A DNA stretch of 64,000 nucleotides from Squalus acanthias (Eukaryota), in assembly GCA_030390025.1 (NCBI GenBank), contig JASTWF010000033.1, forward strand, positions 6,388,001 to 6,452,000, given 5' to 3'. The notes under the pieces are model-generated. The model ran no database searches. It was not told the DNA's origin and saw nothing but the letters and a program-made list of their open reading frames with translations. Shown here piece by piece: positions 2,160-57,144 of the stretch (the first letter of the stretch is position 1; each line of letters starts with the position of its first letter). Both the position numbers and the translations under genes were made by a program.

Positions 2160-2880
2160 TAGCATGCTGTTGCAATGCATGTGTGTTAATGCGAGGAGTG
2201 TTACAAATAAGATTGACGAGTCGCAGGCGCAAGATGCCACATAAGGTTATGAAATAGAGGCTATAACGGAGACCTGGCTTAAAAATGGGCACAATTGGAT
2301 ACTGTTTTTCATTTCAGGTTACTAAGTGAAGTTGGGGTGGAGAAAGCGGAAGGGCTTGCCTTAATCTTCCAATCTTCCGGAGATGCGGGGGAGGTGCCAG
2401 AGAATTGGAAAGTGGTAAATGTGTCATCCTTTTAAAAAAAGTGTGTAAGGACAATCCTAGTAACTACAGGCCGGTCAGTTTAACATCGGTGATGTGGAAG
2501 GTTTTAGAAACAAAAATCAGGGAAAAAATTAACCGGTACTTGGAGAGGTTGAAGTTAATTAAGTAGAGCCAGCACGGATTTGTAAACGGCAGATTGTGTT
2601 TGACTAATCTAATTTAATTTGTTGATGAAGTAACAGAGAAGGTTGATGTAGGGAATGTAGCGGATGTTGTGTATATGGATTTTAAGAAGCTGCGATTACT
2701 TTCCTCACAGGTTTAAGAGGACATTTAATCGAGGTTTTCAAATTTACAAGGGGCATTGATAGAGGAAATAAGGAGCAACCGTCTCCAGTGACAGTAAGAT
2801 CGGTAACCAATGGACACCGATTAAAGATAACCGACAAAAGAACCAGAGGGGAGATGAGGAGAATGTTCTTACACAGCAAA
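2160..2880 (+). mobile_element. CR1 ORF2 patchwork (endonuclease start joined to RT and 3' segments through internal deletions)
   Basis: Hand translation gives CVNARSVTNKIDE (APE start), then YRPVSLTS, QHGFVNGRLCLTNL, VDVGNVADVVYMDF. Confidence 0.75.
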
Positions 2881-3337
2881 GGCTCAGGCCTAACGAATAT
2901 CTTAATGCTCAGGATAAGTTATCACTGCCCAGGCACTCTCTCATTCCAGTTTTGCACACGTTGCTAAGTTTCAAATGTCGTATTTTTGACACTGGCAATG
3001 AATTAATTGATAGCTGCGCTGTGATAAGCTAATGTTGTTAGAGAGATGCAGTTCAAGAAGATACATGGAAGTCGAATGATAAGCGGAACTGTTCTGAAAC
3101 TGTGAGCTGCAGTTAAATATGGGCATGTAAACATTTAAAGTGTTTCGTTCCAAATGTAATTTCCTGCTGACATGAGGCATTTCACAGAAGGCCAGGAAGT
3201 GTATTTTGTATCGCTGTACCGAATGATGCGCTGCCGACTGTTGAGGCAGCAACGGTGTGGAAAGTTAGATCAGGAGCGAGCATAGCTTCGCGCGGTGCTC
3301 TGATTGGTGGCATTTCAAACAACCCCAAAACACACTT

Positions 3338-3404
3338 TTCCCTGCAAGGGAATCGATCCCGGCCCGCGAAAGAGCCGAATCCTAACACACTAGATCAGCA
3401 GGGA
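3338..3404 (-). pseudogene. tRNA-Glu(TTC) pseudogene
   Basis: Reverse complement TCCCTGCTGATCTAGTGTGTTAGGATTCGGCTCTTTCGCGGGCCGGGATCGATTCCCTTGCAGGGAA aligns to vertebrate tRNA-Glu with a deletion across the anticodon 3' stem/variable loop. Confidence 0.8.
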
Positions 3405-3988
3405 AGCTGCAGCAAGCTTCCTAACAGCAAGCAGAGCAACGCAGTCCTTCCGCCTTGCTGCTTTGTAGTTCAGATCGCCTTCACGCCAGGCAAATTTTTC
3501 GTACAAAATTACATGTTCTAGAAACCAAAGCACCAAGTGCGGGCAGGCATCCATTTGAAATCTATTTCCTTCTCTGCTTTTCTCAGAGACACAGAGAGAC
3601 AGACAATCAGAGAGAAGCTGCCGGGGAATTGAACACTCACCACTATAATATCAAAGACATTGTAGAGGAAATGGTTATGCAGTGCATGAGACAAAGACTC
3701 AAACACACACACTTGTGTGCGCTCTCTTTGTGTGTGTATGTCCCACACTCCCGCTTTTTCTGTGAATCCCTGTTAATCTCATGTTCTCTTTCACTCCTCC
3801 GTGCAGCACACAAAAGGGAGAGGCTAAGCACTATACTAACGAGGAACTAGTGCAGGAAGTTGTTATACAGTTCTTTTTATGCCGGTATATCTTTTCAAAT
3901 TATTTTGGTTGATTTTTTTCTATTCATCTTTTCCAACGAGCATTTTAAGGAGCTGCTCATAGGATTAAAATTGGGGATTTAAAAAAAT

Positions 3989-4060
3989 CCCCCTGTCGGG
4001 GAACTGAACCCCGGTCTCCCGCGTGACATGCGGGAATACTCACCAATATACTAACAAGGA
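3989..4060 (-). tRNA. tRNA-Asp(GTC), full length but with T-loop/B-box substitutions (probable pseudogene)
   Basis: TCCTTGT TA GTA TATTGGTGAG TAT T CCCGC ATGTCAC GCGGG AGAC CGGGG TTCAGTT CCCCG ACAGGGG G; all stems pair; T7 terminator follows (3981-3987); T-loop is TTCAGTT instead of TTCGATT. Confidence 0.8.
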
Positions 4061-4129
4061 ACTGGCACCTGGCTTGTCTGTTAGAACAAGAATCGACCTG
4101 TGAACAGAGTGAGAAAGATGCAAGAGACA

Positions 4130-4505
4130 GACATAAGAATAAGAACAGAAGAAATAGAAGCAGGGGTAGGCAATTCGGCCCCTCGAGCATGCTCCGCCAT
4201 TCAATAACTTCATGGCTGATCAGATCTCAGCCACACTACAATGCCACTTTCCCGCCCGCTCCCCATAACACTTGACTCCCCTGCAGCGCAAATATACATA
4301 TGGAATATATTCAATGTCTCCACACCCACACCTCTCTAGTCTCGAGAATTCCAAAGATTCAAGACACTCTAAGAGAATAAATTCCTCCTCATCTCCGTTT
4401 TAAATGGGCGAACCCTTATCCTGAAACAGTGCCCCCTAGTTCTAGATTCCCCAACAGGGGAATCATCCTCCCTGCATCTACCCTGTCAAGTCCCCTCAGA
4501 ATCTA
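4130..4505 (-). mobile_element. CR1 LINE 3' end
   Basis: (ACATAAGA)-type tail, GCAGGGGTAGGCAATTCGGCCC and CR1 ORF2 C-terminal sequence; paralogous copy at ~6110-6351. Confidence 0.75.
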
Positions 4506-5271
4506 ACAGAGAGAGAGAGAATCAGGGACAAAGAGAGACACACAGAGCGAGAGCCTCGGGTTGACGTCTCACAGAGTGGTCATCATGGATGAGGGCCTTC
4601 ATTTATGTTGAGAGAAAGGCGAAGCTGGGATTACTTTCCTCAGAAGTTTAAGAGGAAATTTAATAGAGGTTTTCAAAATTACAAGGGGTTTCGATAGAGT
4701 AAATAAGGAGAAACCATTTCCAGGTGAGTCGGTAACCAGAGGTCACCGATTGAAGATAATCAGCAAAATACCCAGAGGGGAGTTGAAGAGAATTTTCTTA
4801 CGCAGCAAGGGCTCAGGCCTAATGAATATCTTAATGCTCAGGGTAAGTTATCACTGCCCAGGCACTCTCTCATTCCAGTTTTGCACACGTTGCTAAGTTT
4901 CAAATGTTATATTTTTGACACTGGCAACGAATTGATTGATAGCCGTGCTGTGATAAGCTAAGGTTGTAAGGGAGATGCAGTTCAAGAAGATACATGGAAG
5001 GCTAAAGATAAGCGTGACTGTTCTGAAACTGTGAGCTGCATTTAAATGTAGGCATGTAAACATTGAAAGTGTTTCGTTCCAAATGTCATTTCCTGCTGAC
5101 ATGAGGCATTTCACAGAAGGCAAGAAAGAGCATTTTGTATCGCTGTACCGAATGATGCGCTGTCGACTGTCGAGGCAACAGCAGCGGTTTGGAAAGTTAG
5201 ATCGGGAGCGAGCATTGCTTCGCGCGCGGGTGCTTTGATTGGTGGCATTTCAACAACCCCAAAACACACTT

Positions 5272-5340
5272 TTCCCTGACCGGGAATCGAACCCGGGCGC
5301 GGGTGAAAGCGTCGAATCCTAACCACTGGACCACGATTGA
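5272..5340 (-). pseudogene. tRNA-Glu(TTC) pseudogene
   Basis: Reverse complement TCAATCGTGGTCCAGTGGTTAGGATTCGACGCTTTCACCCGCGCCCGGGTTCGATTCCCGGTCAGGGAA; intact B box, broken acceptor stem, short deletion after the anticodon. Confidence 0.85.
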
Positions 5341-5968
5341 ATCTGCAGCAGGCTTCCTGCCAGCAAGCAGAGCAACGCAATCCTTCCTCTTTGCTGCTTT
5401 GAAATTCAGACCGCTTTCACGCCACGCAATTTTTTCGTACAAAATGACATGTTCTAGAAACCACAGCACCAAGTGCGGGCAGGCATCCATTTGAAATCTA
5501 TTTCCTTCTCTGCTTTTCTCAGAGACACACAGAGACAGACAGTCAGAGAGAAGCTGTCGGGGAATTGAATACTCACCACTATAATATCAAGGGCATTGTA
5601 GAGGAAATGGTTATGCAGTGCATTAGACAAAGACACAAACACAAACACGTGTGTGTGCTCCCTTTGTGTGTAGATGTCTCAGATATACATCTGAGTTTCA
5701 TAGGTTCATGGAGGCTGGCAGCACAGTGGGAGGCGTATCCCTGTTATCTAATTTTCTCTGTCCTCTGTCCCTCCTCAGTGCCCCACACAAAAGGGAGAGG
5801 GAAGCAGAGCACTATACTAACGATGAACTGGTGCAGGAAGTTGTTATACAGTTCTTCATATGCCAGTATATTTTGAAAGTGATTGTAGATCATTTATTGC
5901 TGTTCAACTTTTCCAAGGAGAAATTTAAGGAGCCGCTCAAAGGTTTAAGATTGGGGATGGTAAAAATC

Positions 5969-6040
5969 CTCCGCGTGAGGGAATTGAACCCCTGCCTCCC
6001 GGTTGAGAGGCTGGGATACTCACGACTATACTAACGAGAA
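5969..6040 (-). pseudogene. tRNA-Asp-derived pseudogene with anticodon mutated to CTC
   Basis: TTCTCGT TA GTA TAGTCGTGAG TAT C CCAGC CTCTCAA CCGGG AGGC AGGGG TTCAATT CCCTC ACGCGGA G; Asp body with mismatched anticodon and T stems. Confidence 0.8.
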
Positions 6041-6351
6041 ACAGAACGCTGCAGAATCTGTCAGAGCAAGAATCGACCTTGAACAGAGTGACAAAGAAGC
6101 AGAAGGGACAGACATAAGAATAAGAACAGAATAACTGGGAGCAGCAGTGGGCCATTCGGCCCCTCGAGTCTGCCCCGCCATTCAATAAGAGCGTGGCTGA
6201 TCAGATCATCGACTCAACGCCACTGTTCCGCCCGATCCCCATAACCCTTGACTCCCCTGTAGCTCAAATATATGTCCATCTCCGCCTTGAATATATTCAA
6301 TGACTCCGCCTCCACAGCTCTCTGGGGTAGAGAATTCCAAAGATTCACGAC

Positions 6352-6893
6352 TGATGTGGAGTATTTATTCAACACTCGACACAAGTCTGTCAGGTACAAA
6401 TCAAAAGTCTTTATTACACCGGTGGGGAGACAATCTCCTACTGGCGCACCAGCAGACTACTGCAAATTGATACAGTAAGCGTTACATATTTATGCTTTCA
6501 ATAGTCGTGGTAAACTCGTACATAATCCGTTACACTGTTTTAATTGGCTTAAAGCCCACGTGCTCATTTGCTGATTGGCTAATTCCCTATCTCGCGTCAC
6601 ATGACTGTTTGCCTATATTTATTGTCACATGATCTTTATGATCTCACCTGTTGTTCTAAGTTACCGACCTTCAGTAAAACCACATGTCTGCATTTCTGTC
6701 TTGCTGTGCCCCGTGTGGTTTTACTTATCTCTAGGTTCCATAGTTTGTGGTTGGTGCTTCTGAGCTGTTTACATCTAATTTTGCAAAAGCTTCGAGACCA
6801 CTGGTCAACATGTCTGACCTGTCTTCGCTGGTCTCGTGTGCAAGCTGCATTGTTAACCCCTTAATTCCTGAAGGGCGCCGCTGCTCCACTTCA
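6352..6893 (-). repeat. 3' LTR (542 bp)
   Basis: On the minus strand it begins TGAAGTGGAG and ends CTCCACATCA (10-bp imperfect terminal inverted repeat); AATAAA at 6410-6415, TATA-like CATAAATA near 6490, CCAAT boxes near 6545 and 6575. Confidence 0.85.
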
Positions 6894-6953: not shown

Positions 6954-8609
6954 TTACGCGTCCCGCCCCGCTTGCAGGGGCCAGCTGCGAGGTTGCGAGC
7001 ACCTAGTCCGTTTAGAGCTAAATAATTCCTTCGTCTTGTACACGTTTGAGCAGCTTACTCTGTCCCTTAACTTCGCCTTTGCCCTGGTTTTGTGTCTACG
7101 TTTCGACCAAGCAGCACAAGTCATTCTAAGCCAACCTAATGTTAATATTAATTGTAGCGCTACCAGTACATGAGAGATGATGCGGATCCAAGGGGAGATA
7201 TCTACCTTCAAGCCCCAGTTCCAGGCTGTTTCATACCACGGGATCTTACGGAGTTCGGTTTCGATCTGCTTGTCTAGTTAACTCTTGTTTTAGGAGATGG
7301 GACCGTTTTATGTTCTCGCGTGGACGGTGCCGAAGCTTCTTTAGATCTTCTGGGAGATGCGGGGTGTTCCTCGTAAGCCCCAGGCCGCTCTTAACTGGTA
7401 GGTTGGGGGTGAAACAGAATTTAGGGTTCGTGATATTACATGTCAGGCCACCATAGTCGTACATCCGTTGGTTTGTTGTCACGCAGTACTCGTCCTTTCC
7501 CCGGTAGGCAGCGTGGGTCGGTTCAGATTCCGCTGGGCTTATTTCCAGCACACATCCCACAGTCTGATTGAACCCGCACCCATCCTCACTACCTTGCCCC
7601 AGCGGGTGTGAGCAGATCGCGAGGCTTCCTTCCCTGCGGCACCCAATCAATGAGACCCCTCTCATGGTTCCATTTCTTTTGATCGTGTATTGATCCATTG
7701 GTTAATACCGCAGGTAATCCTTTCCACTGATCAGTCCTATGTTCTCCAACTCGTACTGCGGGTATGGTTTCGCGTCTCCAGTCATTATCGGGATCATTAG
7801 CACCAACCCTATCAGCGAGGTGTGAGAGTCAGTGCACCCACTCGGCACAGGGTAGACCCTTGTCATGCCCTTTAATGTACAGCCATCCAGTGATCCTGGG
7901 TGCTGTGCCAACTGCAGTAGGTGGGTACTATTGATCCAATCGGGGGCCCTGCCTGTCTGCATCTGGTCCAGGTTGTGTCGGACTTGTCCTATCATCCATC
8001 CCCCATATGCTGCCCCAAGTCTACTCCCGCCCGGACGTCCCCCGTGTGCCTCTGGAGCAAAATCCGCACAGTCTCTTTAAGACTCTCGGAGCTTGCTTTC
8101 ACGGATTGGATATTCAGGGCATTTATAAGGGACGTGCCGGTATTCACGCCAGTCAACACGTCATTGACTAAACCTTGCTGTTGTTGGAGGAACCCGGTGT
8201 GTCGAGCCACCGCATACAGTTAACGCGCGGCCACATGTTTCTATAGGCATGTAGTATCTGTGGCATCCCTGGTAGATACCTAAACTTAATCCACATACAT
8301 CTCTGATATGGCCGCCCATACCCTCTCACTACCACATTCAATACACAAGGTCCTATTGTACTTTAACTCAACGCCCAATATCCTGGGTTGGGTTCCCTTA
8401 CACCCGCGAAATGTTCGGCCCGTTCCGGGACTCGGTGCCCTTCCGCCGGAATATACCCGTCAGATATACTCTCATCTGACGAGGACCTGTCGGTAATTCG
8501 GGTCTCCCTGGTGCTCTGTATGTTCGCGATTTCTCAGAAGGTCTCCTGTTCCTACGGCGTCCAGTAGTGTCCCCAGTACGAACAGGATCGTGGTGTATAG
8601 AGGCAACAT
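6954..8609 (-). pseudogene. env: env pseudogene (F-protein-like class I fusion glycoprotein, ~550 codons, several stops and frameshifts)
   Basis: ATG at 8609 gives signal-peptide-like MLPLYTTILFVLGTLLDAVG; putative fusion peptide/heptad GLVNDVLTGVNTGTSLINALNIQSVK; Cys-rich block (CRREGSLAICSH...GCGFNQTVGCVL...YCVTT...CNITNPKFCFTP); Trp-rich PWYETAWNWG then TM segment WIRIISHVLVALQLILTLGWL and a basic tail; located between pol and the PPT. Confidence 0.75.
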
Positions 8610-8675: not shown

Positions 8676-10161
8676 TTAAGCAGAAATCTGGTCGTTACCA
8701 GATGTTAATTTATCTCCGATGTTTATTCCATTGTTCCTGTGGGATTTAAAGTCAGATGGGTTATTGTTGTATCGTTTTAATTGGGTCCCATGTTTCCACC
8801 GACCCTTTCCCCTCTTATCTATGCATGCGCACGTGTCCCCGCTTATTATGACCTTGTACGTCCCGTCCACGGAGGGGCGAACCCCGTTCGCCCGGGCAGA
8901 CCCTAAACCATAACCTTCTCTCCTACTGGTGCCACGCTGCCGGACACCCCGTATCCTGGTTTTGGTCTGCACACTCTTGTTGTTCCCTTACCTGCTGTCG
9001 TAATCCTTTTAGTAGTATACTCAATTCCATTACATACCGTCGGATCTGGTCCCTTAGTGGGCCAAGATCTGATCCTCCCGTTACTATTCATTCCGGTAAT
9101 TTCACAGCTCGCCCTGTCATCAGCTCATAGGGGGTAAGCCCCGTGGTCCCGTTAGGGGTTGCACGCAACCTCATGAGGATGGTGGGCAACAATTCCGACC
9201 AGGATTGACCTGTCTCCTGGATGACTTTGGTCAATGATGTTTTCAACGAACGATTCATCCTCTCTACCATTCCCGAACTCTGGGGGTGGTAGGGGATGTG
9301 GAACTTCTGTTTGATACCCATCATTGTACACAATTCTTTGATTCCCTTTCCGGTAAAGTCTGTCCCTTGATCCGAGTCAATTTGTGCAGGGATTCCCCAA
9401 CGGGGATTCACCTCGTCTGCCAATATTTTTGCCACAGTGATGGCGGTGAAATTGCGGGTAGCAAATTTTTCCACCCGCCGTGTGAACTGAACAATCATCA
9501 CTGGGCATTATTTCTTCCCCCGAGAGCTGGGTAGTTGCCCAGTAAAATATATCTGTAAATTCTCCCACGGGCCCCTAGGACGTGGTTGATGCGACAGTCG
9601 TATCTTCACTGCTTTCCCCGGATTATGCTGGGCACATATCACAAATCGGTAACAGTACTCGGCAATCCACCGGCCACCACGAGGCCCGGACAAAACGTCT
9701 GGTAACGGCGGTTCTTCCCCGATGATCGACTCCGTGTGTAGCACCATCAGCATAAGCAGTATGCATTCGGGGGCTATTACACGGCCGTCCTTTCGCCATA
9801 CAGAGTTCGGACCCTGGGTCCCGCCCTTCTCTTTCCACTCTTTCTTCTCCCTATGGTTGGCATCGGCTTGCAATTTCGCAACGTCTATACTATGTTCTCC
9901 GAGGGTCAAATCACCCACGGCCTCATCCATGGGAGTTTGGGTCTCCGCCGCACCACGTGCGGGGATGTTTGCTGCCTCATTTCCCTTCTGAACCTCGTTT
10001 TCCACCTTCTGGTGAGCCTTTATTTTGATGACTGCTGCTTGGGCAGGTTTACTAGCAGCATCCAATAGCAGCGTAATTCGGCCTTCATGTTTGATGGCCT
10101 TCCCTCCTGAGGTGACAAATCCTCGTCTGCCCCAGGCGGTCATGTGATCGTGTTCTACCAA
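8676..10161 (-). pseudogene. pol: pol pseudogene fragment: RNase H C-terminus plus integrase
   Basis: WGRRGFVTSGGKAIKH...IKIKAHQ...KGNEAA (retroviral RNase H); CAQHNPGK zinc-finger remnant; WGIPAQIDSDQGTDF...PYHPQSSGMVERMNRSLK (D,D35E core); DGTYKVII...WKHGTQLK (C-terminal domain). Frameshifted. Confidence 0.9.
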
Positions 10162-13100
10162 AATTTGGTAACAGGTTGCTCAACGCCGTTTATACTGCCT
10201 GTTTAAAATCACTATAAGCGGTTTGTTCGATCGGCCAGCGTGGCTCCAAGTTCCGGGACCCAGGTCTGGTACTTTACGTCATCCGCCAATGTGTTCCAGA
10301 GGTCCCGGGGGCACTTGCCTCGGACGATTTGTCTGTGTCTGTGAATGGAGTTGTCTCGATCTGTGAATGGAGCTGTCTGGGTCTGTGAATGGCGCTGTCT
10401 GGGTTTGTGAATGGAGCTTCCAATGTCTGTAATTGGAGATGTCTGGGTCTGTGTATGCAGCTGTCTGGGTCTGTGAATGGAGCTGCCTGGGTCTGTGAAT
10501 GGAGCTGTCTGGGTCTGTGAATGACGCTGTCTGGGTCTGTGAATGGAGCTGTCTGGGTCTGTGAATGGAGCTGCCAGTGTCTGTAAATGGAGCTGTCTCG
10601 GTCTGTGAATGGAGCTGTCTGGGTCTGTGAATAGGCGCTGTCTGGGTTTGTGAATGTAGCTTCCAGTGTCTGTAATTGGAGATGTCTGGGTCTGTGTATG
10701 GAGCTGTCTGGGTCTGTGAATGGAGCTGTCTGGGTCTGTGAATGGAGCTGTCTGGGTCTGTGAATGGCGCTGTCTGGGTCTGTGAATGGAGCTGTCTGGG
10801 TCTGTGAATGGCGCTGTCTGGGTTTGTGAATGGTGCTTCCAGTGTCTGTAATTGGAGATGTCTGGGTCTGTGTATGGAGCTGTCTGGGTCTGGGAATGGA
10901 GCTGTCTGGGTCAGTGAATGGAGCTGTCTGGGTCTGTGAATGGCGCTTTCTGGGTCTGTGAATGGAGCTGTCTGGGTCTGTGAATGGAGCTGCCAGTGTC
11001 TGTAAATGGAGCTGTCTCGGTCTGTGAATGGAGCTGTCTGGGTCTGTGAATGGAGCTGTCTGGGTCTGTCAATGGAGATGCCAGAGTCTGTAACTGGAGC
11101 GGTCTGTGTCTGTGAATGGATCTCTCTGTTTCTGTGAATTGACCTGTCTGGGTCTGTGAATGGAGCTGTCTGTGTCTTTTAAGTAAGTTCTCTGGGTCTG
11201 TGAATGGAGCTGTCTGTGTCTGTGAATGGAACTGTCTGGGTCTGTGAATGGAGATTTTGGGGTCTGTGAATGGAGTTGTCTGGGTCTGTGAATGGTGATG
11301 TCTGGGTCTGTGAATGAAGCTGTCTGCATCAGTGAATGGAGCTGTCTGGGTCTGTGAATGGAGCTGTCTGGGTGTGTAAATTGAGCTGTCTGAGTCTGTG
11401 AATGGAGCTCTCTGGGTCTGTGAAGAGACCAGCATGGGTGTATGAATGGAGCTCACTTGTTCTGTGAATGGAACTGTCTGGGTCTGTGAATCGAGCTGTC
11501 TGAGTCTGTGAAGTGAGTTGTCTGTGTCTCTGAATGGAGCTGTTTGTGTCTGTGAATGAAGCTGTCTGGGTCTGTGAATGAAGCTGTCTGTGTCTCTGAA
11601 TGGAACTGTCTTTGTCTGTGAATGGAGCAGCCAGATTCTGTAAATGGAGCTGTCTGGGTCGGTGAATGGAGCTGCCTGGGTCTGTCAATGGTGTTCTCTG
11701 GTTCTGTGAATGGATTTTCTGTGTCTGTGAATGGAGTTGTCTGTATCGGTGAATGGAGCTGTCTGTATCTGTGAATTGTACTGCCTGTGTCGGGGAATGG
11801 AGCTCTCCGGGAGTGTGAATGGAGCTGTCTGGGTCTGTGAATGGAGATGTCTGGGTCTGTGAATGGAGCTGTCTGGGTCTGTGAATGGAGCTGTCTGCGT
11901 CTGTGAATGGAGCTTTCTCTGTCTGTGAATGGAGCTGTCTGGGTCTGTGAATGGATCTGTCCGTGTCTGTGAATTGACCTGTCTGGTTCTGTGAATGGAG
12001 CTGTCTGGGTCTGTAAATTGAGCTGTCTGAGTCTGTGAATGGAGCTCTCTGGGTCTGTGAAGAGACCAGCATGGGTGCATGAATGGAGCTCACTTGTTCT
12101 GTGAATGGAACTGTCTGGGTCTGTGAATCCAGCTGTCTGAGGCTGTGAAGTGAGTGATCTGTGTCTCTGAATGGAGCTGTTTGTGTCTGTGAATGAAGCT
12201 GTCTGGGTCTGTGAATGAAGCTATCTGTGTCTGTGAATGGAACTGTCTTTGTCTGTGAATGGAGCAGCCAGATTCTGTAAATTGAGTTGTCTGGGGCTGT
12301 GAATGGAGCTGTCTGGGTCTGTCAATGGTGTTCTCTGGTTCTGTGAATGGAGCTGTCTGGGTCTGTGAATGGCACTGTCTGGGTTTGTGAATGGAGCTTC
12401 CAGGGTCTGTAATTGGAGATGTCTGGGTCATTGTATAGAGCTGTCTGGGTCTGTGAATGGAGATGTCTGGGTCTGTGTATGGAGCTGTATGGGTCTGTGA
12501 ATTGAGCTGTCTGGGTCTGTGAATGAAGCTGTCTGGGTCTGTGAATGGCGCTGTCTGGGTCTGTGAATGGAGCTGTCTGGGTCTGTGAATGGAGCTGCCA
12601 GTGTCTGTAAATGGAGGTGTCTCGGTCTGTGAATGGAGCTGTCTGGGTCTGTGAATGGAGCTGTCTGGGTATGTGAATTGACCTGTCTGGGTCTGTGAAT
12701 GGAGCTGTCTGTGTCTTTTAAGTAAGTTCTCTGGGTCTATGAATGGAGCTGTCTGTGTCTGTGAATGGAACTGTCTGGGTCTGTGAATGGAGATTATGGG
12801 GTCTGTGAATGGAGTTGTCTGGGTCTGTGAATGGTGATGTCTGGGTCTGTGAATGAAGCTGTCTGCATCAGTGAATGGAGCTGTCTGGGTCTGTGAATGG
12901 AGCTGTCTGGGTCTGTAAATTGAGCTGTCTGAGTCTGTGAATGGAGCTCTCTGGGTCTGTGAAGAGAACAGCATGGGTGTATGAATGGAGCTCACTTGTT
13001 CTGTGAATGGAACTGTCTGGGTCTGTGAATCGAGCTGTCTGAGTCTGTGAAGTGAGTTGTCTGTGTCTCTGAATGGAGCTGTTTGTGTCTGTGAATGAAG

Positions 13101-16100
13101 CTGTCTGGGTCTGTGAATGAAGCTGTCTGTGTCTCTGAATGGAACAGTCTTTGTCTGTGAATGGAGCAGCCAGATTCTGTAAATTGAGCTGTCTGGGTCG
13201 GTGAATGGAGCTGCCTGGGTCTGTCAATGGAGCTGTCTGGGTCTGTGAATGGACCTGTCTGGGTCTGTGTATGGAGCTGTCTGGGTCTGTGAATGGAGCT
13301 GCCAGTGTCTGTAAATGGAGGTGTCTCGGTCTGTGAATGGAGCTGTCTGGGTCTGTGAATGGAGCTGTCTGGGTCTGTGAATTGACCTGTCTGGGTCTGT
13401 GAATGGAGCTGTCTGTGTCTTTTAAGTAAGTTCTCTGGGTCTGTGAATGGAGCTGTCTGTGTCTGTGAATGGAACTGTCTGGGTCTGTGAATGGAGATTT
13501 TGGGGTCTGTGAATGGAGTTGTCTGGGTCTGTGAATGGTGATGTCTGGGTCTGTGAATGAAGCTGTCTGCATCAGTGAATGGAGCTGTTTGGGTCTGTGA
13601 ATGGAGCTGTCTGGGTCTGTAAATTGAGCTGTCTGAGTCTGTGAATGGAGCTCTCTGGGTCTGTGTATGGAGCTGTCTGGGTCGGTGAATGGAGCTGCCT
13701 GGGTCTGTCAATGGAGCTGTCTGGGTCTGTGAATGGACCTGTCTGGGTCTGTGTATGGAGCTGTCTGGGTCTGTGAATGGAGCTGTCTGGGTCTGTGAAT
13801 GGAGCTGTCTGGGTCTGTGAATGGAGCTTTCTCTGTCTGTGAATTGACCTGTCTGCGTCTGTCAATGGAGCTGTCTGGGTTTGTCAATGGACCTGTCTGG
13901 GTCTGTGTATGGAGCTGTCTGTGTCTGTGAATGGAGCTGTCTGGGTCTGTGAATGAAGCTGTCTGCGTCAGTGAGTGGAGCTGTCTGGGTCTGTGAATGG
14001 AGCTGTCTGGGTCTGTAAATTGAGCTGTCTGAGTCTGTGAATGGAGCTCTCTGGGTCTGTGAAGAGACCAGCTTGGGTGTATGAATGGAGCTCACTTGTT
14101 CTGTGAATGGAACTGTCTGGGTCTGTGAATCGAGCTGTCTGAGGCTGTGAAGTGAGTTGTCTGTGTCTCTGAATGGAGCTGTTTGTGTCTGTGAATGAAG
14201 CTGTCTGGGTCTGTGAATTAAGCTGTCTGTGTCTGTGAATGGAACTGTCTTTGTCTGTGAATGGAGCAGCCAGAATCTGTAAATGGAGCTGTCTTGGTCT
14301 GTGAATGGAGCTGTCTGGGTCTGTCAATGGTGTTCTCTGGTTCTGTGAATGGATTTTCTGGGTCTGTGAATGGAGTTGCCTGGATCTGTGAACGGAGCTG
14401 TCTGGGTCTGTGAATGGCGCTGTCTGGGTTTGTGAATAGAGCTTCCAGAGTCTGTAATTGGAGATGTCCCGGTCTTTGTATAGAGCTGTCTGGGTCTGTG
14501 AATGGAGATGTCTGGGTCTGTGAATGGAGCTGTCTGGGTCTGTGAATGGCGCTGTCTGGGTCTGTGAATGGAGCTGCCTGTGTCTGTAAATGGAGCTGTC
14601 TCGGTCTGTGAATGCAGCTGTCTGGGTCTGTGAATGGAGCTGTCTGGGTCTGTGAATGCAGCTTTCTCTGTCTGTGAATGGAGCTGCCTGGGTCTGTGAA
14701 TGGAGCTGTCTGGGACTGTGAATGGAGCTGTCTGGGTCTGTGAATGGAGCTGTCTAGGTCTGTGAATGGAGCTGTCTGGGTCTGTGAATGCAGCTTTCTC
14801 TGTCTGTGAATGGAGCTGCCTGGGTCTGTGAATGGAGCTGTCTGGGACTGTGAATGGAGCTGTCTGGGTCTGTGAATGGAGCTGTCTGGATCTGTGAATG
14901 GAGCTGTCTGGGTCTGTGAATGGAGATTTTGGGGTCTGTGAATGGAGTTGTCTGGGTCTGTGAATGGTGATGTCTGGGTCTGTGAATGAAGCTGTCTCCG
15001 TCAGTGAATGGAACTGTCTGGGTCTGTGAATGGAGCTGTCTGGGTCTGTAAATTGAGCTGTCTGAGTCTGTGAATCGAGCTGTCTGAGTCTGTGAAGTGA
15101 GTTGTCTGTGTCTCTGAATGGTGCTGTTTGTGTCTGTCAATGAAGCTGTCTGGGTCTGTGAATGAAGCTGTCTGTGTCTGTGAATTGACCTGCCTGTGTC
15201 TGTGAATTGACCTGTCTGGGTCTGTCAATGGAGCTGTCTGTGTCTTTGAAGTAAGTTCTCTGGGTCTGTGAATGGAGCTATCTGTGTCTGTGAATGGAAC
15301 TGTCTGGGTCTGTGAATGGAGATTTTGGGGTCTGTGAATGGAGTTGTCTTGGTCTGTGAATGGTGATGTCTGGGTCTGTGAATGAAGCTGTCTGCGTCAG
15401 TTAATGGAGCTGTCTGGGTCTGTGAATGGAACTGTCTGGGTCATTGAATGGAGATTTTGAGGTCTGTGAATGGAGATATGTGGATCTTCGTATGGTGATG
15501 TCTGGGTCTGTGAATGAAGCTGTCTGCGTCAGTGAATGGAGCTGTCTGGGTCTGTGAATGGAGCTGTCTGGGTGTGTAAATTGAGCTGTCTGAGTCTGTG
15601 AATGGAGCTCTCTACGTCTGTGAAGAGACCAGCATGGGTGCATGAATGGAGCTCACTTGTTCTGTGAATGGAACTGTCTGGGTCTGTGAATCGAGCTGTC
15701 TGAGTCTGTGAAGTGAGTTGTCTGTGTCTCTAAATGGAGCTGTCTGTGTCTGTGAATGGAACTTTCTTTATCTGTGAATGGAGCTGCCAGATTCTGTAAA
15801 TGGAGCTGTCTGGATCTGTGAATGGAGCTGTCTGGGACTGTGAATGGAGCTGTCTGGGTCTGTGAATGGAGCTGTCTGGGTCTGTGAATGCAGCTGTCTG
15901 GGTCTGTGAATGCAGCTTTCTCTGTCTGTGAATGGAGCTGCCTGGGTCTGTGAATGGAGCTGTCTGGGACTGTGAATGGAGCTGTCTGGGTCTGTGAATG
16001 GAGCTGTCTGGGTCTGTGAATGGAGCTGTCTGGGTCTGTGAATGGAGCTTTCTCTGTCTGTGAATGGAGCTGTCTGGGTCTGTCAATGGAGCTGTCTGGG

Positions 16101-19100
16101 TCTGTGAATGGACCTGTCTGGGTCTGTGTATGGAAATGTCTGGGTCTGTGAATGGAGCTGTCTGGGTCTGTGAATGGAGCTGTCTGGGTCTGTCAATGGA
16201 GATGCCAGTGTCTGTAACTGGAGCGGTCTGTGTCTGTGAATAGATCTGTCTGTGTCTGTGAATTGACCTGTCCGGGTCTGTGAATGGAGCTGTCTGTGTC
16301 TGTGAATGGAGCTGTCTGGGTCTGTCAATAGAGATGCCATAGTCTGTAACTGGAGCGGTCTGTGTCTGTGAATGGATCTGTCTGTGTCTGTCAATTGACC
16401 TGTCTGGGTCTGTGAATGGAGCTGTCTGGGTCTGTGAATGGAGCTGTCTGGGTCTGTCAATAGAGATGCCATAGTCTGTAACTGGAGCGGCCTGTGTCTG
16501 TGAATGGATCTGTCTGTGTCTGTCAATTGACCTGTCTGGGTCTGTGAATGGAGGTGTCTGTGTCTTTGAAGTAAGTTCTCTGGGTCTGTGAATGGAGCTA
16601 TCTGTGTCTGTGAATGGAACTGTCTGGGTCTGTGAATGGAGATTTTGGGGTCTGTGAATGGAGTTGTCTGGGTCTGTGAATGGTGATGTCTGGGTCTGTG
16701 AATGAAGCTGTCTGCGTCAGTGACTGGAGCTGTCTGGGTCTGTAAATTGAGCTGTCTGAGTCTGTGAATCGAGCTGTCTGAGTCTGTGAATGGAGCTTTC
16801 TCTGTCTGTGAATGGTGCTGTCTGGGTCTGTCAATGGAGCTATCTGTGTCTGTGAATGGAACTGTCTGGGTCTGTGAATGGAGATTTTGGGGTCTGTGAA
16901 TGGAACTGTCTGGGTCTGTGAATGGAGATTTTGGGGTCTGTGAATGGAGTTGTCTGGGTCTGTGAATGGTGATGTCTGGGTCTGTGAATGAAGCTGTCTG
17001 CGTCAGTTAATGGAGCTGTCTGGGTCTGTGAATGGAGCTGTCTGGGTCTGTAATTGTACTGTCTGGGTCTGTGAATGGAGTTTCTGGGTCTGTGAATGGA
17101 GTTGTCTGGGTCTGTGAATGGAGTTGCCTGGGTCTGTGAATGGAGTTGTCTGGAACTGTGAATGGTGCTGTCTGAATCTGTGAATTGTACTGCCTCTGTC
17201 GGTGAATGGAGCTCTCTGGGTGTGTGAATGGAGCTTCCAGTGTCTGTAATTGGAGATGTCTGGGTCTGTGTATGGAGCTGTCTGGGTCTGTGAATGGAGC
17301 TGTCTGGGTCTGTGAATGGAGCTGTCTGGGTCTGTGAATGGAGCTTTCTCTGTCTGTGAATGGAGCTGTCTGGGTCTGTCAATGGAGCTGTCTGAGTCTG
17401 TGAATGGACCTGTCTGGGTCTGTGTATGGAGCTGTCTGGGTCTCTGAATGGAGCTGTCTGGGTCTGTGAATGGAGCTGTCTGGGTCTGTCAATGGAGATG
17501 CCAGAGTCTGTAACTGGAGCGGTCTGTGTCTGTGAATGGATCTGTCTGTGTCTGTCAATTGACCTGTCTGGGTCTGTGAATGGAGGTGTCTGTGTCTTTG
17601 AAGTAAGTTCTCTGGGTCTGTGAATGGAGCTATCTGTGTCTGTGAATGGAACTGTCTGGGTCTGTGAATGGAGATTTTGGGGTCTGTGAATGGAGTTGTC
17701 TGGGTCTGTGAATGGTGATGTCTGGGTCTGTGAATGAAGCTGTCTGCGTCAGTTAATGGAGCTGTCTGGGTCTGTGAATGGAACTGTCTGGGTCTGTGAA
17801 TGGAGATTTTGAGGTCTGTGAATGGAGATATGTGGGTCTGTGACTGGTGATGTCTGGGTCTGTGAATGAAGCTGTCTGCGTCAGTGAATGGAGCTGTCTG
17901 GGTCTGTGAATGGAGCTGTCTTGTCTGTAAATTGAGCTGTCTGAGTCTGTGAATGGAGCTCTCTAGGTCTGTGAAGAGACCAGCATGGGTGCATGAATGG
18001 AGCTCACTTGTTCTGTGAATGGAACTGTCTGGGTCTGTGAATCGAGCTGTCTGAGTCTGTGAAGTGAGTTGTCTGTGTCTCTGAATGGAGCTGTTTGTGT
18101 CTGTGAATGAAGCTGTCTGGGTCTGTTAATGAAGCTGTCTGTGTCTGTGAATGGAACTGTCTTTGTCTATGAATGGAGCTGCCAGATTCTGTAAATGGAG
18201 CTGTGTGGGTCTGTGAATGGAGCTGTCTGGGTCTGTCAATGGTGTTCTCTGGTTCTGTGAATGGATTTTCTGGGTCTGTGAATGGTGATGTCTGGGTCTG
18301 TGAATGGACTTGTCTGGATCTGTGAATGGAGCTGTCTGAATCTGTGAATTGTACTGCCTGTGTCTGTGAATGGAGCAATCTGGGTGTGTGAATGGAGCTT
18401 CCAGTGTCTGTAATTGGAGATGTCTGGGTCTGTGTATGGAGCTGTCTGGGTCTGTGAATGGAGCTGTCTGGGTCTGTGAATGGAGCTGTCTGGGTCTGTC
18501 AATGGAGCTGTCTGGGTCTTTGAATGGACCTGTCTGGGTCTATGTATGGAGCGACTGGGTCTGTCAATGGAGCTGTCTGGGTCTGTGAATGGAGCTGTCT
18601 GGGTCTGTCAATGGAGATGCCAGAGTCTGTAACTGGAGCTGTCTGTGTCTTTTAAGTAAGTTCTCTGGGTCTGTGAATGGAGCTATCTGTGTCTGTGAAT
18701 GGAACTGTCTGGGTCTGTGAATGGAGATTTTGGTGTCTGTGAATGGAGTTGTCTGGGTCTGTGAATGGTGATGTCTGGGTCTGTGAATGAAGCTGTCTGC
18801 GTCAGTGAATGGAGCTGTCTGAGTCTGTGAATGGAGCTGTCTGGGTCTGTAAATTGAGCTGTCTGAGTCTGTGAATGGAGCTCACTGGGTCTGTGAAGAG
18901 ACCAGCATGGGTGTATGAATGGAGCTCACTTGTTCTGTGAATGGAACTGTCTGGGTCTGTGAATCGAGCTGTCTGAGTCTGTGAAGTGAGTTGTCTGTTT
19001 CTCTGAATGGAGCTGTTTGTGTCTGTGAATGAAGCTGTCTGGGTCTGTGAATGAAGCTGTCTGTGTCTCTGAATGGAACTGTCTTTGTCTGTAAATGGAG

Positions 19101-20325
19101 CTGCCAGATTCTGTAAATGGAGCTGTCTGGGTCTGTGAATGGAGCTGTCTGGCTCTGTGAATGGAGCTGTCTGGGTCTTTCAATGGACCCGTCTGGGTCT
19201 GTGAATGGAGCTGTCTGTGTCTTTGAAGTAAGTTCTCTGGGTCTGTGAATGGAGCTATCTGTGTCTGTGAATGGAACTGTCTGGGTCTGTGAATGGTGAT
19301 TTTGGGGTCTGTGAATGGAGTTGTCTGGGTCTGTGAATGGTGATGTCTGGGTCTGTGAATGAAGCTGTCTGCGTCAGTGAATGGAGCTGTCTGGGTCTGT
19401 GAATGGAGCTGTCTGGGTCTGTAAATTGAGCTGTCTGAGTCTGTGAATGGAGCTCTCTGGGTCTGTGAAGAGACCAGCATGGGTGTATGAATGGAGCTCA
19501 CTTGTTCTGTGAATGGAACTGTCTGGGTCTGTGAATCGAGCTGTCTGAGTCTGTGAAGTGATTTGTCTGTTTCTCTGAATGGAGCTGTTTGTGTCTGTGA
19601 ATGAAGCTGTCTGGGTCTGTGAATGAAGCTGTCTTTGTCTATGAATGGAACTGTCTTTGTCTGTGAATGGAGCTACCAGATTCTGTAAATGGAGCTGTCT
19701 GGGTCTGTGAATGGAGCTGTCTGGGTCTGTCAATGGTGTTCTCTTGTTCTGTGAATGAATTTTCTGGGTCTGTGAATGGGGTTGCCTGGGTCTGTGAATG
19801 GTGATGTCTGTGTCTGTGAATGGAGTTGTCTGGAACTGTGAATGGTGCTGTCTGAATCTGTGAATTGTACTGCCTCTGTCGGTGAATGGAGCTCTCTGGG
19901 TGTGTGAATGGAGCTTCCAGTGTCAGTAATTGGAGATGTCTGGGTCTGTGTATGGAGCTGTCTGGGTCTGTGAATGGAGCTGTCTGGGTCTGTGAATGGA
20001 GCTGTCTGGGTCTGTGAATGGAGCTGTCTGGGTCAGTGAATGGAGCTGTCTGGGTCTGTGAATGGAGCTGTCTGGGTCTGTGAATGGAGCTGTCTGGGTC
20101 AGTGAATGGAGCTGTCTGGGTCTGTGAATGGAGCTGTCTGGGTCAGTGAATGGAGCTGTCTGGATCCGTGAATGGAGCTGTCTGGGTCTGTGAATGGAGC
20201 TGTCTGGGTCTGTGAATGGAGCTGTCTGGGTCTGTGAATGGAGCTGTCTGGGTCTGTGAATGGAGCTGTCTGGGTCAGTGAATGGAGCTGTCTGGGTCTG
20301 TGAATGAAGCTGCCAGAGTCTGTAA

Positions 20326-22010
20326 ATGAAGCTCCGCTTCTTCCTTGAACAGAGGCCCAACCAGTCCCCAGCCACAACCACCCTCCTCCGCCTGGCTGAA
20401 CTTGTTCTCACATTGAACAACTTCTCCTTTGACTCTACCCATTTCCTCCAAATTAAAGGTGTTGCTGTGGGTACCCGCATGGGTCCTAGCTATGCCTGCC
20501 TTTTCCTGGGATATGTGGAACACTCTTTGTTCCAGTCCTACTCGGGTCCCCTCCCTCACCTCTTTTTCCGGTACATTGATGGCTGTATTGGTGCCGTCTC
20601 CAACTCTCGCCCTGAACTAGAACATTTCATTCACTATGCTTCCAATTTCCACCCTTCCCTCACCTTCACATGGTCCATCTCCGACTCTTCCCTTCCCTTC
20701 CTCGACTTCTCCATCTCCATCTCTGGGGATAGGTTATTGACTAACATTCACTACAAGCCCACTGACTCCCACAGCTACCTGGACTACACTTCCTCCCACC
20801 CCGCCTCCTGTAAGGACTCTATTCCATTCTCCCAGTTTCTCCGTCTCCGCCGCATCTGCTCTGATGATGCCACCTTCCATACCAGTGCTTCCGACATGTC
20901 TTCCTTTTTCCTCAACCGAGGATTCCCCTCTACCGTGATCGACACGGCCCTCGACCGTGTCCGTTCTATCTCCCGCACTTCTGCCCTCACCCCTGCCCCT
21001 CCCTCCCGGAACCACGATAGGGTTCCCCTTGTCCTCACCTTTCACCCCACCAGCCTCCACATTCAACGGATCATCCTCCGCCATTTCCGCCACCTCCAGC
21101 GTGATCCCACCACCAAACACATCTTCCCCTCACCTCCCCTTTCAGCATTCCACAGGGACCGCTACCTCCGCGACACCCTAGTCCACTCCTCTACCACCCC
21201 CAGCACCCCTTCCCCTTCGCCCGGCACCTTCCAGTGCACGCGCAGGAAATGCAACACATGCCCTTATACCTCCCCTCTTCCCACTGTCCAGGGCCCCAAA
21301 CACCCCTTCCAGGTGAAACAGCGATTTACTTGTACTTCCTGCAATTTAGTATACTGTATTCGCTGCTCACGATGTGGTCTCCTCTACATTGGGGAGACCA
21401 AACGCAGATTGGGTGACCGCTTTGCGGAACACCTCCGTTCAGTCCGTAAGGGGGACCCCGAGCTCCCGGTCGCCTGTCACTTTAATTCACCGCTTCACTC
21501 CCACTCTGACCTCACCGTCCTCGGCCCATTACACTGTTCCACGGCAGCGCAGCGTAAGCTCGAGGAACAGCACCTCATCTTTCGTTTAGGCACGCTACAG
21601 CCATCTGGACTCAATATCGAGTTCAACAATTTCAGATCATAACCTCAGCTCCAATCACATTTATATTTTATTTTTTCCACCCTTTTATTTGCCCCCCCCA
21701 CCTTTTTTTTCCTCCTAGAAGCTGGCAGCTGTCCTTCATTCTGCCAATGGATTTCACACTTCTTTCAGCCTTAATCTGTCACATTAACACCACCTCTAGC
21801 CTTGAATATCTCTTAATGTCTCTTCATCTCCCCCTTTGTTCCTTTATCCCCTCCCCCTTTTCCCAGCTTTACCCTGGCCTTAAATCTATTTGATTTCCGG
21901 CTCTTCCCAGTTCTGACGAAAGGTCATCGACCTGAAACGTTAACTCTCTTTCTCTCTCCACGGATGCTGCCTTGCCTGCTGAGTTTTTCCAGCGTTTTCT
22001 GTTGTTATTC
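20326..22010 (+). mobile_element. Penelope-like retroelement, 5'-truncated, inserted in the satellite
   Basis: Uninterrupted 438-aa frame (20326-21642) with PLE RT motifs (QIKGVAVGTRMGPSYA, FFRYIDG, LPFLD, YKPT) and a C-terminal GIY-YIG endonuclease (NLVYCIRC...LLYIGETKR..RF.EH..GLN); 3' UTR with a hammerhead-like motif. Confidence 0.93.
21909..21945 (+). ncRNA. Minimal hammerhead ribozyme-like motif in Penelope 3' end
   Basis: AGTT-CTGACGA-A-AGGTC(ATC)GACCT-GAAA-CGTT-AACT: conserved core boxes, 5-bp stem II, stem I AGTT/AACT, palindromic ACGT stem III typical of PLE minimal hammerheads. Confidence 0.7.
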
Positions 22011-23072
22011 CTGTAAATGGAGCTGTCTGGGTCTGTGAATGGAGCAGTCGGGGTCTGTGAATGAACCTGTCTGGGTCTGTGAATGGAGCTCTCTGGGTCT
22101 GTGAATGGAGCTTTCTCTGTCTGTGAATGGAGCTGTCTGGGTCTGTGAATGGAGCTGTCTGGGTTTGTGAAGAGAGCAGCATGGGTGTATGAATGGAGCT
22201 CTCTTGTTTTGTGAGTGGAACTGTCTGGGTCTGTGTATGGAGCTGTCTGGGTCTGTGAATGGACCTGTCTGGGTCCGTGAATGTGCTGTCTGGGTCTGTG
22301 AATGGAGCTGTCTGGGTCTGTGAATGGAGCTGTCTGGGTCTGTGAATGGCGCAGTCTGGGTCTGTGAATGGACCTGTCTGTGTCTGTGAATGGAGTTGTC
22401 TGGGTCTGTGAATGGAGCTGTCTGGGTCTGTGAATGGAGCTGTCTGGGTCTGTCAATGGAGCTGCCAGAGTCTGTAACTGGAGCTGTCTGTGTCTGTGAA
22501 TGGAGCTGTCTGGGTCTGCGAATTGAGTTGCCTGTGTCTGTGAATGGAGTTGTCTAGGTCTGTGAATGGTGCTGTCTGGGTCTGTGAATAGAGCTGTCTA
22601 GGTCAGTGAATGGTGCTGTCTGGGTCTGTGAATGGAGCTGTCTGGGTTGAGAATTGAGCTGTCTGAATCTGTGAATGTAGCTCTCTGAGTCTGTGAAGAG
22701 AGCAGCAAAGGTGTATGAATGGAGCTCCCTTGTTCTGTGAATGAAACCGTCTGGGTCTGTGAATCGAGCTGTCTGAGTCTGTGAAGTGAGTTGGCTATGT
22801 CTCTGAATGGAATTGTTTGTGCCTGTGAGAGGAGCATGCTGAGTCTGTGAATGGAGCTGTCTGAGTCTGTAAATGGAGCTGCCAGAGTCTGTAAATGGAG
22901 CTGTCTGGGTCTGTGAATGGAGCAGCCTGGGTTTGTGAATGGAGTTGTCTGGGTCTGTGAATCGAGCTCTCTGAGTCTGTAAATGGAGCTGTCTGAGTCT
23001 GTAAATTGAGCTGTCTGGGTCTGTAAATGGAGCTGTCTGTGTCTGTGAATGGCGCTATCTATGTCTCTGAAT

Positions 23073-25821: not shown

Positions 25822-26044
25822 CGAGCTGTCTGGGTCTGTGAATGGAGCTGTCTGTGTCTGTGATTGGGGCTGTCTGAGTATGTGAATGGAGCTGTCTGGG
25901 TCTGTGAATGGAGCTGTCTGAGTCTGTGAATGAGCTGTCTGGGTCTGTGAATGGAGCTGTCTGAGTCTGTGAATGGAGCTGTCTGAGTCTGTGAATGGAG
26001 CTGTCTGGGTCGGTGAAATGAGCTGTCTGAATCACAGAATGAAT

Positions 26045-26138
26045 CTAACAACAGAAAACGCTGGAAAACTCAGCAGGCCAGGCACAATCCGTGGAGAGAG
26101 AAACAGAGTTAACGTTTCAGGTCGAAGACCTTTCGTCA
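26045..26138 (-). mobile_element. Short Penelope 3'-end fragment with truncated hammerhead motif
   Basis: Reverse complement closely matches 21914-22008 (TGACGAAAGGTCTTCGACCTGAAACGTTAACTC...CTGCTGAGTTTTCCAGCGTTTTCTGTTGTT). Confidence 0.85.
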
Positions 26139-56200: not shown

Positions 56201-56790
56201 CTCAGCTCCTCCCCACCCATCCTAATATCCTCAGCTCCTCCCCACCCCACCTAATACCCTCAGCTTCTCCCCACCATCTAATATCCTCAGCTCCTCCCCA
56301 CCCCTCCTAATATCCTCAGCTCCTCCCACCCCACCTAATATCCTCAGCTCCTCCCCACCTCACCTAATATCCTCAGCTCCTCTCCACCCCAACTAATATC
56401 CTCAGCTACCCCACATCCAACCTAATATCCTCAGCTCCTCCCCACCACACCTAATAGCCTCTACTCCTCTCCACCCCACCTAATATCCTCAGCTCCTCTC
56501 CACCCCACCTAATATCCTCAGCTCCTCTCCACCCCACCTAATATCCTCAGCTCCTCTCCACCCCACCTAATATCCTCAGTTCCTCACCACCCCAACTAAT
56601 ATCCTCAGCTCCGCCACATCCAACCTAATATCCTCAGCTCCTCCCCACCACAGATAATATCCTCAACTCTACTCCACCCCACTAATATCCTCAGCTCATC
56701 CCCAACCCACCTAATATCCTCAGCACCTCCCCACCGCACCTAATATCCTGAGCACCTCCCCACCCTACATTTTATTCTCAGCTCATCCCC
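53266..56790. repeat. 29-bp satellite, consensus CCTAATATCCTCAGCTCCTCCCCACCCCA, about 120 copies
   Basis: Directly visible 29-nt periodicity; extreme C/G strand skew; degenerates at its right edge. Confidence 0.97.
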
Positions 56791-57144
56791 ACCAATGTTC
56801 TGTCTAATTTCTTTCAACTGAGCGGGCCACAAACTCCTTTGACTGCGACCTTTTCTTCCGTGGAATTTGTCTCCATCGTCCCCGGAGGTGATTTGAGCGC
56901 TAAAGCAAGTGCTGCACACCTCTCTTAGAACACTAACATCGGGAACGATCGGGGAGCGAGGCACTAACTCAGAACGCTACTGAAGCTCAGGCGATGTCAA
57001 TAACCCTGGAACTCAGACAGACTGGCGCCATCCTGTTCTTCAAGGGGAGGGTCCATCTTGTTGCACAGCCACACCCTGCTCATTGCAGCTTTGAGCATCG
57101 GCCTGCTAACATCATTGAGATTGCTGAAACGATTGTGTTGGATA

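Follow-up and report, generated by a model that had tools for sequence, protein, structure and literature searches.

A truncated endogenous retrovirus copy, likely from a shark, and the predicted F-type envelope protein of its many-copy family

What kind of retrovirus left the broken provirus in this 64-kb stretch of DNA (hereafter the window), and was its envelope protein inherited or acquired from elsewhere? A first, sequence-only reading proposed a lokiretrovirus-like or ERV4-like element in a probable cartilaginous fish, with an env resembling the fusion (F) protein of paramyxoviruses and pneumoviruses and possibly captured independently. Wang and Han left open four scenarios for how loki and retroviral Env arose; the structure of foamy Env later tied a second retroviral lineage to F (PMC11468914). 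We think it likely that the locus is a dead, truncated, env-deleted endogenous retrovirus (ERV) copy whose pol belongs with ordinary retroviruses and not with loki, and that its predicted F-type Env was inherited rather than newly captured.

The provirus copy and its deletions

The copy at this locus is dead: it is truncated on its 5' side and carries deletions in env. It belongs to an endogenous retrovirus family with many copies, and the host is likely a shark. The RNase H/integrase, env remnant, polypurine tract, and LTR named in the sequence-only reading are all present on the minus strand, from 10179 to 6352:

6352..6893, minus strand: 3' LTR (TG...CA, 542 bp), aligning with both LTRs of the two-LTR copies L012, L015, L018, L019, and L023
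6894..6905, minus strand: polypurine tract (PPT), a purine run adjoining the LTR and common to L012, L015, L018, L020, and L025
6954..8609, minus strand: env remnant of a predicted F-type (class Ib) fusion protein, assigned from the family fold and searches, broken by stops, frameshifts, and four internal deletions
7134..7190, minus strand: transmembrane (TM) helix after a Trp-rich segment
7279..8010, minus strand: F1-like core (helix, beta sheet, and Cys-rich domains, then heptad repeat B [HRB]), 42% identical to residues 339-621 of P0001
8020..8174, minus strand: post-cleavage fusion-peptide-like segment and start of heptad repeat A (HRA), aligning to residues 245-294 of P0001; a helix in the family model
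8201..8202, minus strand: junction of a 514-nt deletion, with short sequence similarity at both ends, from the alignment against L025
8203..8552, minus strand: first part of a variable N-terminal head that matches no known family and, to judge from the foamy receptor-binding domain (RBD), likely binds a receptor
8553..8609, minus strand: signal-peptide-like hydrophobic env N terminus (Kyte-Doolittle 19-mer mean of 1.75)
8676..9759, minus strand: broken integrase with zinc finger remnant, core, and C-terminal part (Pfam rve, E 5.6e-10; 87% identical to L020)
9760..10179, minus strand: retroviral-type RNase H remnant, by tblastn to the RNase H region of full-length copies, themselves PF00075 matches
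10330..20333, no strand: 22-bp satellite array of 455 copies at the provirus 5' break

Within the window, the 542-bp LTR occurs only at 6352..6893, with no second copy, and no gag, RT, or 5' LTR was found elsewhere. The integrase core lies at 9504-9091 (minus strand). The RNase H piece had no Pfam match of its own; it aligns at 42-48% with the RNase H/integrase-start region of full-length copies. The env start at 8609 matches the start in L015, L018, L019, and L025, and in the frame at the env tail of other copies the stop maps to about 7018, not 6954. The hydrophobic signal-like start and the Trp-rich segment with its TM helix, as described earlier, were found again (8609-8553 and 7190-7134). 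Pfam searches of the window env pieces and of natural env frames returned nothing relevant, and a Pfam search of the frame spanning the head (8203..8552) gave no match; an Atlas search with the head of L025 gave no usable match, which speaks neither for novelty nor for absence.

A fusion-peptide-like segment (GLVND..) does begin at 8174, 145 codons past the env ATG, as had been noticed. However, this short N-terminal part is the product of an internal deletion, so that the spacing is an artefact and a short F2 followed by a long F1 is not the native layout; the polybasic cleavage site is absent. In an alignment with L025, 514 nt are missing from the window env after 8202. Three smaller gaps, seen relative to L025 and to most copies, are about 124 nt (near 8011), 71 nt (after 7397), and 14 nt (after 7363) long. 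What the 514-nt segment encodes is the remainder of the head and a conserved pre-cleavage (F2-like) core, and the stretch it encodes before the cleavage site is conserved in all relatives that reach that region. It is present at 4 loci (L076 carries it and L077 part of it), compared with 40 matches to the env 5' part in the same genome; most copies of the window's env subfamily therefore carry the deletion. As read from its sequence, the window copy cannot encode a working fusion protein.

The native layout is apparent from relatives. The polybasic motif occurs in L016, L019, and L025, and in related envs reading through from the start the cleavage site falls at residue 252 (P0001), 272-275 (P0086), or 272 (P0098), compared with about codon 315 in L025 and 370 in L026 and L029. 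N-terminal parts of about 250-370 residues, consisting of a variable head and a conserved core, are thus native. A family env comprises a signal-like start, a head of about 160-280 residues, the conserved core, the polybasic site, and a membrane-anchored subunit of about 440-460 residues. Three copies (L027, L028, and L030) keep the core but have lost most of the head, and no clear signal peptide is present in them.

The window also holds features unrelated to the provirus parts. A direct duplication of about 1.95 kb (79-89%; 2686-4365 and 4621-6351) contains tRNA-derived sequence, including a tRNA-Asp at 3988-4061 and tRNA-Glu-like remnants, recognized by eye, near 3340-3400 and 5275-5335. 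A 5S rRNA match (1705-1825, 58 bits) is possibly a pseudogene. The 22-bp satellite forms arrays at 10330-20333, 22011-23073, and 25823-31252, and a 29-bp C-rich tandem array of 122 copies lies at 53266-56793, with a short copy in the opposite orientation at 62942-63153.

The predicted fold of the family Env

For fold prediction we used a relative rather than the window's broken protein, namely, an unchanged 476-residue stretch of L028 with a 74-row alignment; the L028 env is 51-54% identical to env rows of the window subfamily. The model reached a pLDDT of 72 and a pTM of 0.56, with the fusion-peptide region under pLDDT 50 (an earlier model from 14 rows, with a pLDDT of 33.7, was not used). 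Its best Foldseek matches in the PDB were respiratory syncytial virus (RSV) F (E 2.9e-11) and human parainfluenza virus 3 (hPIV3) F (1.4e-10), and it also matched henipavirus F and a foamy Env (8rm1, 4.2e-7). VIA gave Z scores of 12.9 against 1ztm (rmsd 14.6, 332 residues aligned) and 11.8 against 8dmj (rmsd 4.9, 285 aligned). TM-scores were only 0.4-0.5 because of the long-helix conformation. Paramyxovirus and pneumovirus F proteins (PF00523; 1ztm, 6apb, and 3rki) were the best structural matches, over model residues 10-408, yet at 10-13% identity; the family env also differs from them in having its own N-terminal head instead of depending on a separate attachment protein. Nested domains I-III, a core beta sheet, and HRA and HRB helices, which define class Ib, can all be recognized in the predicted model.

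Searches at the sequence level were fainter and led to foamy viruses. A profile of the 74 rows (A3) placed foamy Env in the top three PDB positions (E 1e-4 to 9e-4; next match, 0.17), and a 48-row env profile likewise had foamy Env chains at the top (E 7e-4); the part of the profile corresponding to the window's F1-like core (7279..8010) is what finds the foamy Env TM subunit. A phmmer search with one env and a 14-row profile retrieved only coiled-coil noise from the PDB. Atlas features pointed to Baculo_F and Fusion_gly (scores of 0.91-0.92) at a recognition value of 1608, below the 2300 threshold. Among 55 env homologues, the best Pfam match was Baculo_F in one protein (E 0.001). Among the 74 rows, Fusion_gly (PF00523) matched 4 (best E 0.005) and GP41 matched once (E 0.041), with no match to TLV_coat and none to foamy env (PF03408) at E 0.05.

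For the family as a whole, the prediction is an Env of the F-type (class Ib), a fusogen with the paramyxovirus/pneumovirus F fold in its core and anchored subunit. The resemblance to F thus held up, in the model through RSV and hPIV3 F and in the profile through foamy Env, although the argument first given for it, a short F2 and long F1, was wrong: the family has a foamy-like extra head before the F core. By analogy with F and foamy Env, furin cleavage at the polybasic site would free an N-terminal fusion peptide, after which HRA would extend and HRB zip back into a six-helix bundle, and the head would bind a receptor as the foamy RBD does. That the protein would act as a trimer fusing membranes after cleavage is suggested by the predicted fold.

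A gamma-type Env was rejected. Neither CX6CC nor an ISD is present in the window env, in agreement with the sequence-only reading, and the 74 family rows contain no ISD and no ectodomain CX6CC; the CX6CC string appears in 2 of them, both times in the TM/tail region of a frog protein. TLV_coat is likewise missing.

Against predicted viral structures (BFVD), the model matched baculovirus F, lispivirus/arlivirus G, and other glycoproteins of insect and fish negative-strand viruses, the best matches being nonretroviral (Sanxia water strider virus 4, E 5e-16). Retroviral matches included walleye epidermal hyperplasia virus 1 (WEHV-1) Env (Q9WHI8, 5.1e-11), feline foamy Env (6.5e-7), and walleye dermal sarcoma virus (WDSV) Env (A4GTG3, 1.2e-5). 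The structure and profile checks proposed at the outset recovered F, baculovirus F, and foamy Env without any TLV coat, but they also recovered the Envs of epsilonretroviruses. The Env of SnRV was not among the best 50 BFVD matches, and loki Env was not among the fold-search matches listed either, which is no evidence on the likeness of these two to the family. The walleye Envs are structural matches to the family model but are much longer (1160-1320 aa). They have been described as without gamma-type hallmarks (PMC9967133), and the same review reads them as a later development from a gamma-type ancestor; if that is right, at least the walleye case is a swap.

Placement of the family pol

We examined 20 genome stretches and measured LTR pairs in 9 of them. 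Following the LTR to full-length proviruses, as had been suggested, yielded two-LTR copies with the order LTR-PBS-gag-pol-env-PPT-LTR. Full-length copies encode a gag with two CCHC knuckles (two CX2CX4HX4C motifs in L015), an RT (QYVDD), a tether, RNase H, an integrase with a weak MLVIN_C match, and env. PF17919/PF17917 followed by PF00075 in L015, L023, and L025 constitutes a dual RNase H (tether plus RNase H). The MLVIN_C matches (L029, E 5e-5; L025, 0.004) are both below the curated cutoff, and W-x-GP-[FY] is visible in L018, L019, and L029. The primer binding site (PBS) of the two-LTR copies we take to be of the tRNA-Ser 3' end type. An exact 5-bp target site duplication (TSD) flanks four of the nine; a fifth agrees at 4 of 5 bases, two read as 4 bp, and two have none. 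LTR-pair K2P distances were 0.016-0.055 in eight copies and 0.109 in L012. At the rates quoted in PMC4422223 and PMC7947760, the eight pairs span roughly 4-125 million years, which is no useful date.

The window is without RT, and RT placement rests on its relatives L015, L028, and L029. RT plus tether scored 263 bits against MLV-type RT in the PDB, 177 against foamy, and 126 against Ty3. Trees included rows that we take, from their motifs, to be class I, and foamy-like loci labelled by a Pfam A9-protease match rather than by named accessions; SnRV (P0045) and loki (P0053/P0055) were likewise labelled by motif match to the PMC7947760 supplement and not by named accession. The RT tree was built without P0022, which is short, and without 14 other rows that were redundant, unrelated, non-LTR, or affected by frameshifts, and the integrase tree without 11 distant Gypsy-like rows and short matches. 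In the 42-row RT tree, the family (6 rows, 100/96) falls inside the ordinary retrovirus clade (100/99), and the loki-motif rows P0053 and P0055 are the sister of that clade. Approximately unbiased (AU) tests on RT rejected grouping the family with loki (p 2.8e-6), with class-I-like rows (p 0.002), and with a second F-env pol lineage (p 8.7e-5). On these trees, the family pol is a deep branch within the SnRV/foamy/class-I grade, inside ordinary Retroviridae, with weak deep nodes. A Ty3/Gypsy (errantivirus) assignment was rejected, as the RT does not group with Metaviridae and the RNase H is dual rather than single; an F-like Env has been published for invertebrate errantiviruses (PMC13524379).

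A lokiretrovirus lineage extended to cartilaginous fish, the first identity proposed for this locus, now appears very improbable. Loki Env is F-like, with a signal peptide, RXKR site, fusion peptide, coiled coil, and TM in an LTR-gag-pol-env element, and an F-like Env with an RXKR site plus a dual RNase H (PF17919 tether and RNase H) are loki features (PMC7947760) that the family shares; none of the three chondrichthyan genomes in that paper's supplement had loki. However, a dual RNase H is common to all retroviruses, and the family's RT motifs (PQGFHNSP and QYVDD) are those of SnRV-type RTs, not the loki forms CPFGYSNSP and IYVDD. The family pol is not loki in the RT test above, and in the integrase tree, which includes the window's own integrase, grouping with loki is rejected at p-AU 0.024 (a weak tree). 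The window integrase sits in a shark clade (97/93) and not with loki, the outcome of a check that the sequence-only reading itself had suggested. PF00523 is also matched far less well by the family (best E 0.005) than by loki (2e-7; PMC7947760). The alternative label, ERV4, is defined by the absence of a gag zinc finger, the absence of a GPF/Y motif after integrase, and a 5-bp TSD (PMC4299795). The family has the TSD, but its zinc knuckles and GPY/F-like motif exclude ERV4 as so defined.

SnRV and SnRV-like ERVs (clade Huo) have similar RT motifs, and grouping them with the family was not rejected (p 0.26). However, SnRV is not with the family in the best RT tree, and its integrase scores low against the window's (72 bits). 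SnRV-like ERVs are reported from elephant shark (CmiERV lineage I; PMC4422223). Among the ERVs of cartilaginous fish, those of clade III predominate (PMC11089739).

The family might instead be a basal foamy-like retrovirus (clade Tu, near the shark and frog foamy-like ERVs [FLERVs]) whose env is a diverged foamy Env, a reading we consider improbable. In foamy Env (8rm1, 8ozh, and 8rm0; PMC11468914), too, the core is F-type, the membrane-anchored subunit is long, and the cleavage site is preceded by an additional head; the foamy RBD is inserted in the F scaffold. Foamy Env is the best sequence-profile match of the family env (E 1e-4), and HHalign of the family env against the same genome's foamy-type env gives E 7e-5 (probability of 62%). 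In RT, the family joins the foamy-like shark rows at 88/88, and a single clade has been reported for the FLERVs of sharks and frogs (PMC5512871). However, support for that RT node does not reach the star threshold, and foamy viruses sit on a long branch. The L015 gag has two CCHC knuckles, whereas foamy viruses and fish FLERVs have a gag without Cys-His boxes (PMC5210030). Foamy viruses are recognized by a tRNA-Lys/Asn PBS and a 4-bp TSD, unlike the presumed Ser-type PBS and mostly 5-bp TSD here. The family env has a plain signal peptide rather than the membrane-anchored leader of foamy Env and a head that is shorter and unrelated-looking, and no accessory genes were seen between env and the LTR, unlike in foamy viruses. 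The genome's true foamy-type envs, moreover, are another family: all 11 PF03408 matches fall outside the window-family loci. True foamy-like ERVs in this genome (L063-L075 and L078-L079) account for 49 A9-protease matches and the 11 foamy-env matches.

Spread, recombination, and the origin of the env

The family is abundant. A 151-residue env piece has at least 158 matches in the 3.7-Gb assembly (150 of 6232 candidates scored). Among nine database matches to the env, the eight that could be named are all from sharks (Mustelus, Pristiophorus, Chiloscyllium, and Heterodontus), supporting the cartilaginous-fish host that had been guessed from the DNA. More distant relatives come from the shark Scyliorhinus and the frogs Pelodytes, Mantella, and Xenopus (10 of 60 matches looked up). 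The window env clade includes sharks of five genera, and its lineages run deeper than any one genome. Five gene models (P0097, P0103, P0109, P0115, and P0118) join env pieces to Niban, FBXO15, cadherin, caspase, and Calx-beta; these are probably annotation artefacts.

Integrase and env do not tell the same story of relatedness. The window integrase core is only 61-69% identical to those of L015, L023, and L025, whereas the env DNA of the same three copies shares 91-92% identity with that of the window. This mismatch suggests that subfamilies have recombined. Recombinant-looking copies occur at L027:6739-8721, L028:6724-8553, and L030:1611-3278, each with a window-type pol end and another subfamily's env. 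At the window itself, 13 other copies are 95% or more identical, the 3' flank is common to 4 of 15 loci tested (at 96-98%), and differences from the flank-sharing loci are flat over codon positions (sums of 24/17/23), as expected of segmental duplicates. The 22-bp satellite also adjoins the truncated provirus in L011, L013, L021, and L024, which indicates that the block was duplicated as one unit. L012:2755-9150 is a duplicate of the window insertion and is possibly a chimera of two insertions: it has a 5' LTR (K2P of 0.109 to the 3' LTR), its ends show no matching TSD, and little of the satellite is left.

We propose that a parent copy lost the pre-cleavage core by deletion and that most copies of the window's env subfamily would descend from it. 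In the window copy, the deleted env would have been paired with the pol of another subfamily, likely by recombination; the 5' half of the copy would then have been lost, and segmental duplication would have multiplied the remainder together with its flanks and the satellite. Within the subfamily, env pairs have NG86 dN/dS values of 0.21-0.55, and deletion-carrying copies are modestly enriched for third-position differences (sums of 38/38/66 over three independent pairs). Judged from codon positions, this excess sits uneasily with a wholly neutral spread after the deletion, and together with the dN/dS values it is, on the same footing, a trace of selection that partly predates integration. This genome also contains a second clade of F-type envs (L043-L062, G000), more abundant than the first, that is related to frog proteins and accompanies a different pol clade; P0099, a relative of that clade, has a weak V-set match at its N terminus (E 0.045).

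The F-type env may have come with the lineage or from outside. An independent capture had been suggested, and a separate acquisition could also have been a swap from a loki-, foamy-, or walleye-type retrovirus, besides capture from an RNA-virus- or baculovirus-like donor. The nonretroviral rank of the best BFVD matches (Sanxia water strider virus 4) would fit such a donor, but identities to all of those matches are 10-15%, so that rank says little on donors, and the only sequence-level PDB matches are foamy Env. Env swaps do occur in the family, since in L028 and L030 a window-type pol end is followed by an env of the other subfamily, and frequent env recombination is described for anamniotes (bioRxiv 2021.11.23.469661). 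However, the window env clade spans five shark genera, with lineages deeper than any one genome. On balance we regard separate acquisition as rather unlikely. Old inheritance is favored over fresh capture because two env clades ride on two separate pol clades and the same fold recurs in foamy, loki, and walleye Envs; inheritance is thus the likelier account, with swaps possible.

These observations have implications beyond the locus, which as a dead duplicated fragment adds little beyond pointing to the family. In the part of the literature covered, we found no paper that describes an F-type Env for shark ERVs outside the loki and foamy groups or for walleye retroviruses, and walleye Env is called distinct or unmodelled there. 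An F-type Env on pol lineages within Retroviridae that are neither loki nor typical foamy, together with the walleye match, favors the presence of F in a common ancestor. We can entertain, without yet leaning towards it, a scheme in which the class Ib fusogen would be the ancestral Env of all Retroviridae, retained by loki and foamy viruses, by the walleye epsilonretroviruses, and by two or more unclassified lineages of sharks and frogs, with the shared core bearing a different grafted head in each. Gamma- and beta-type Envs would then be later replacements, and sharks would hold a large, little-described radiation of the ancestral type. The question of inheritance can now be tested by comparing an F-core tree with the RT tree. 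Among early retroviruses, F-type Env was likely much more widespread than the literature covered describes.
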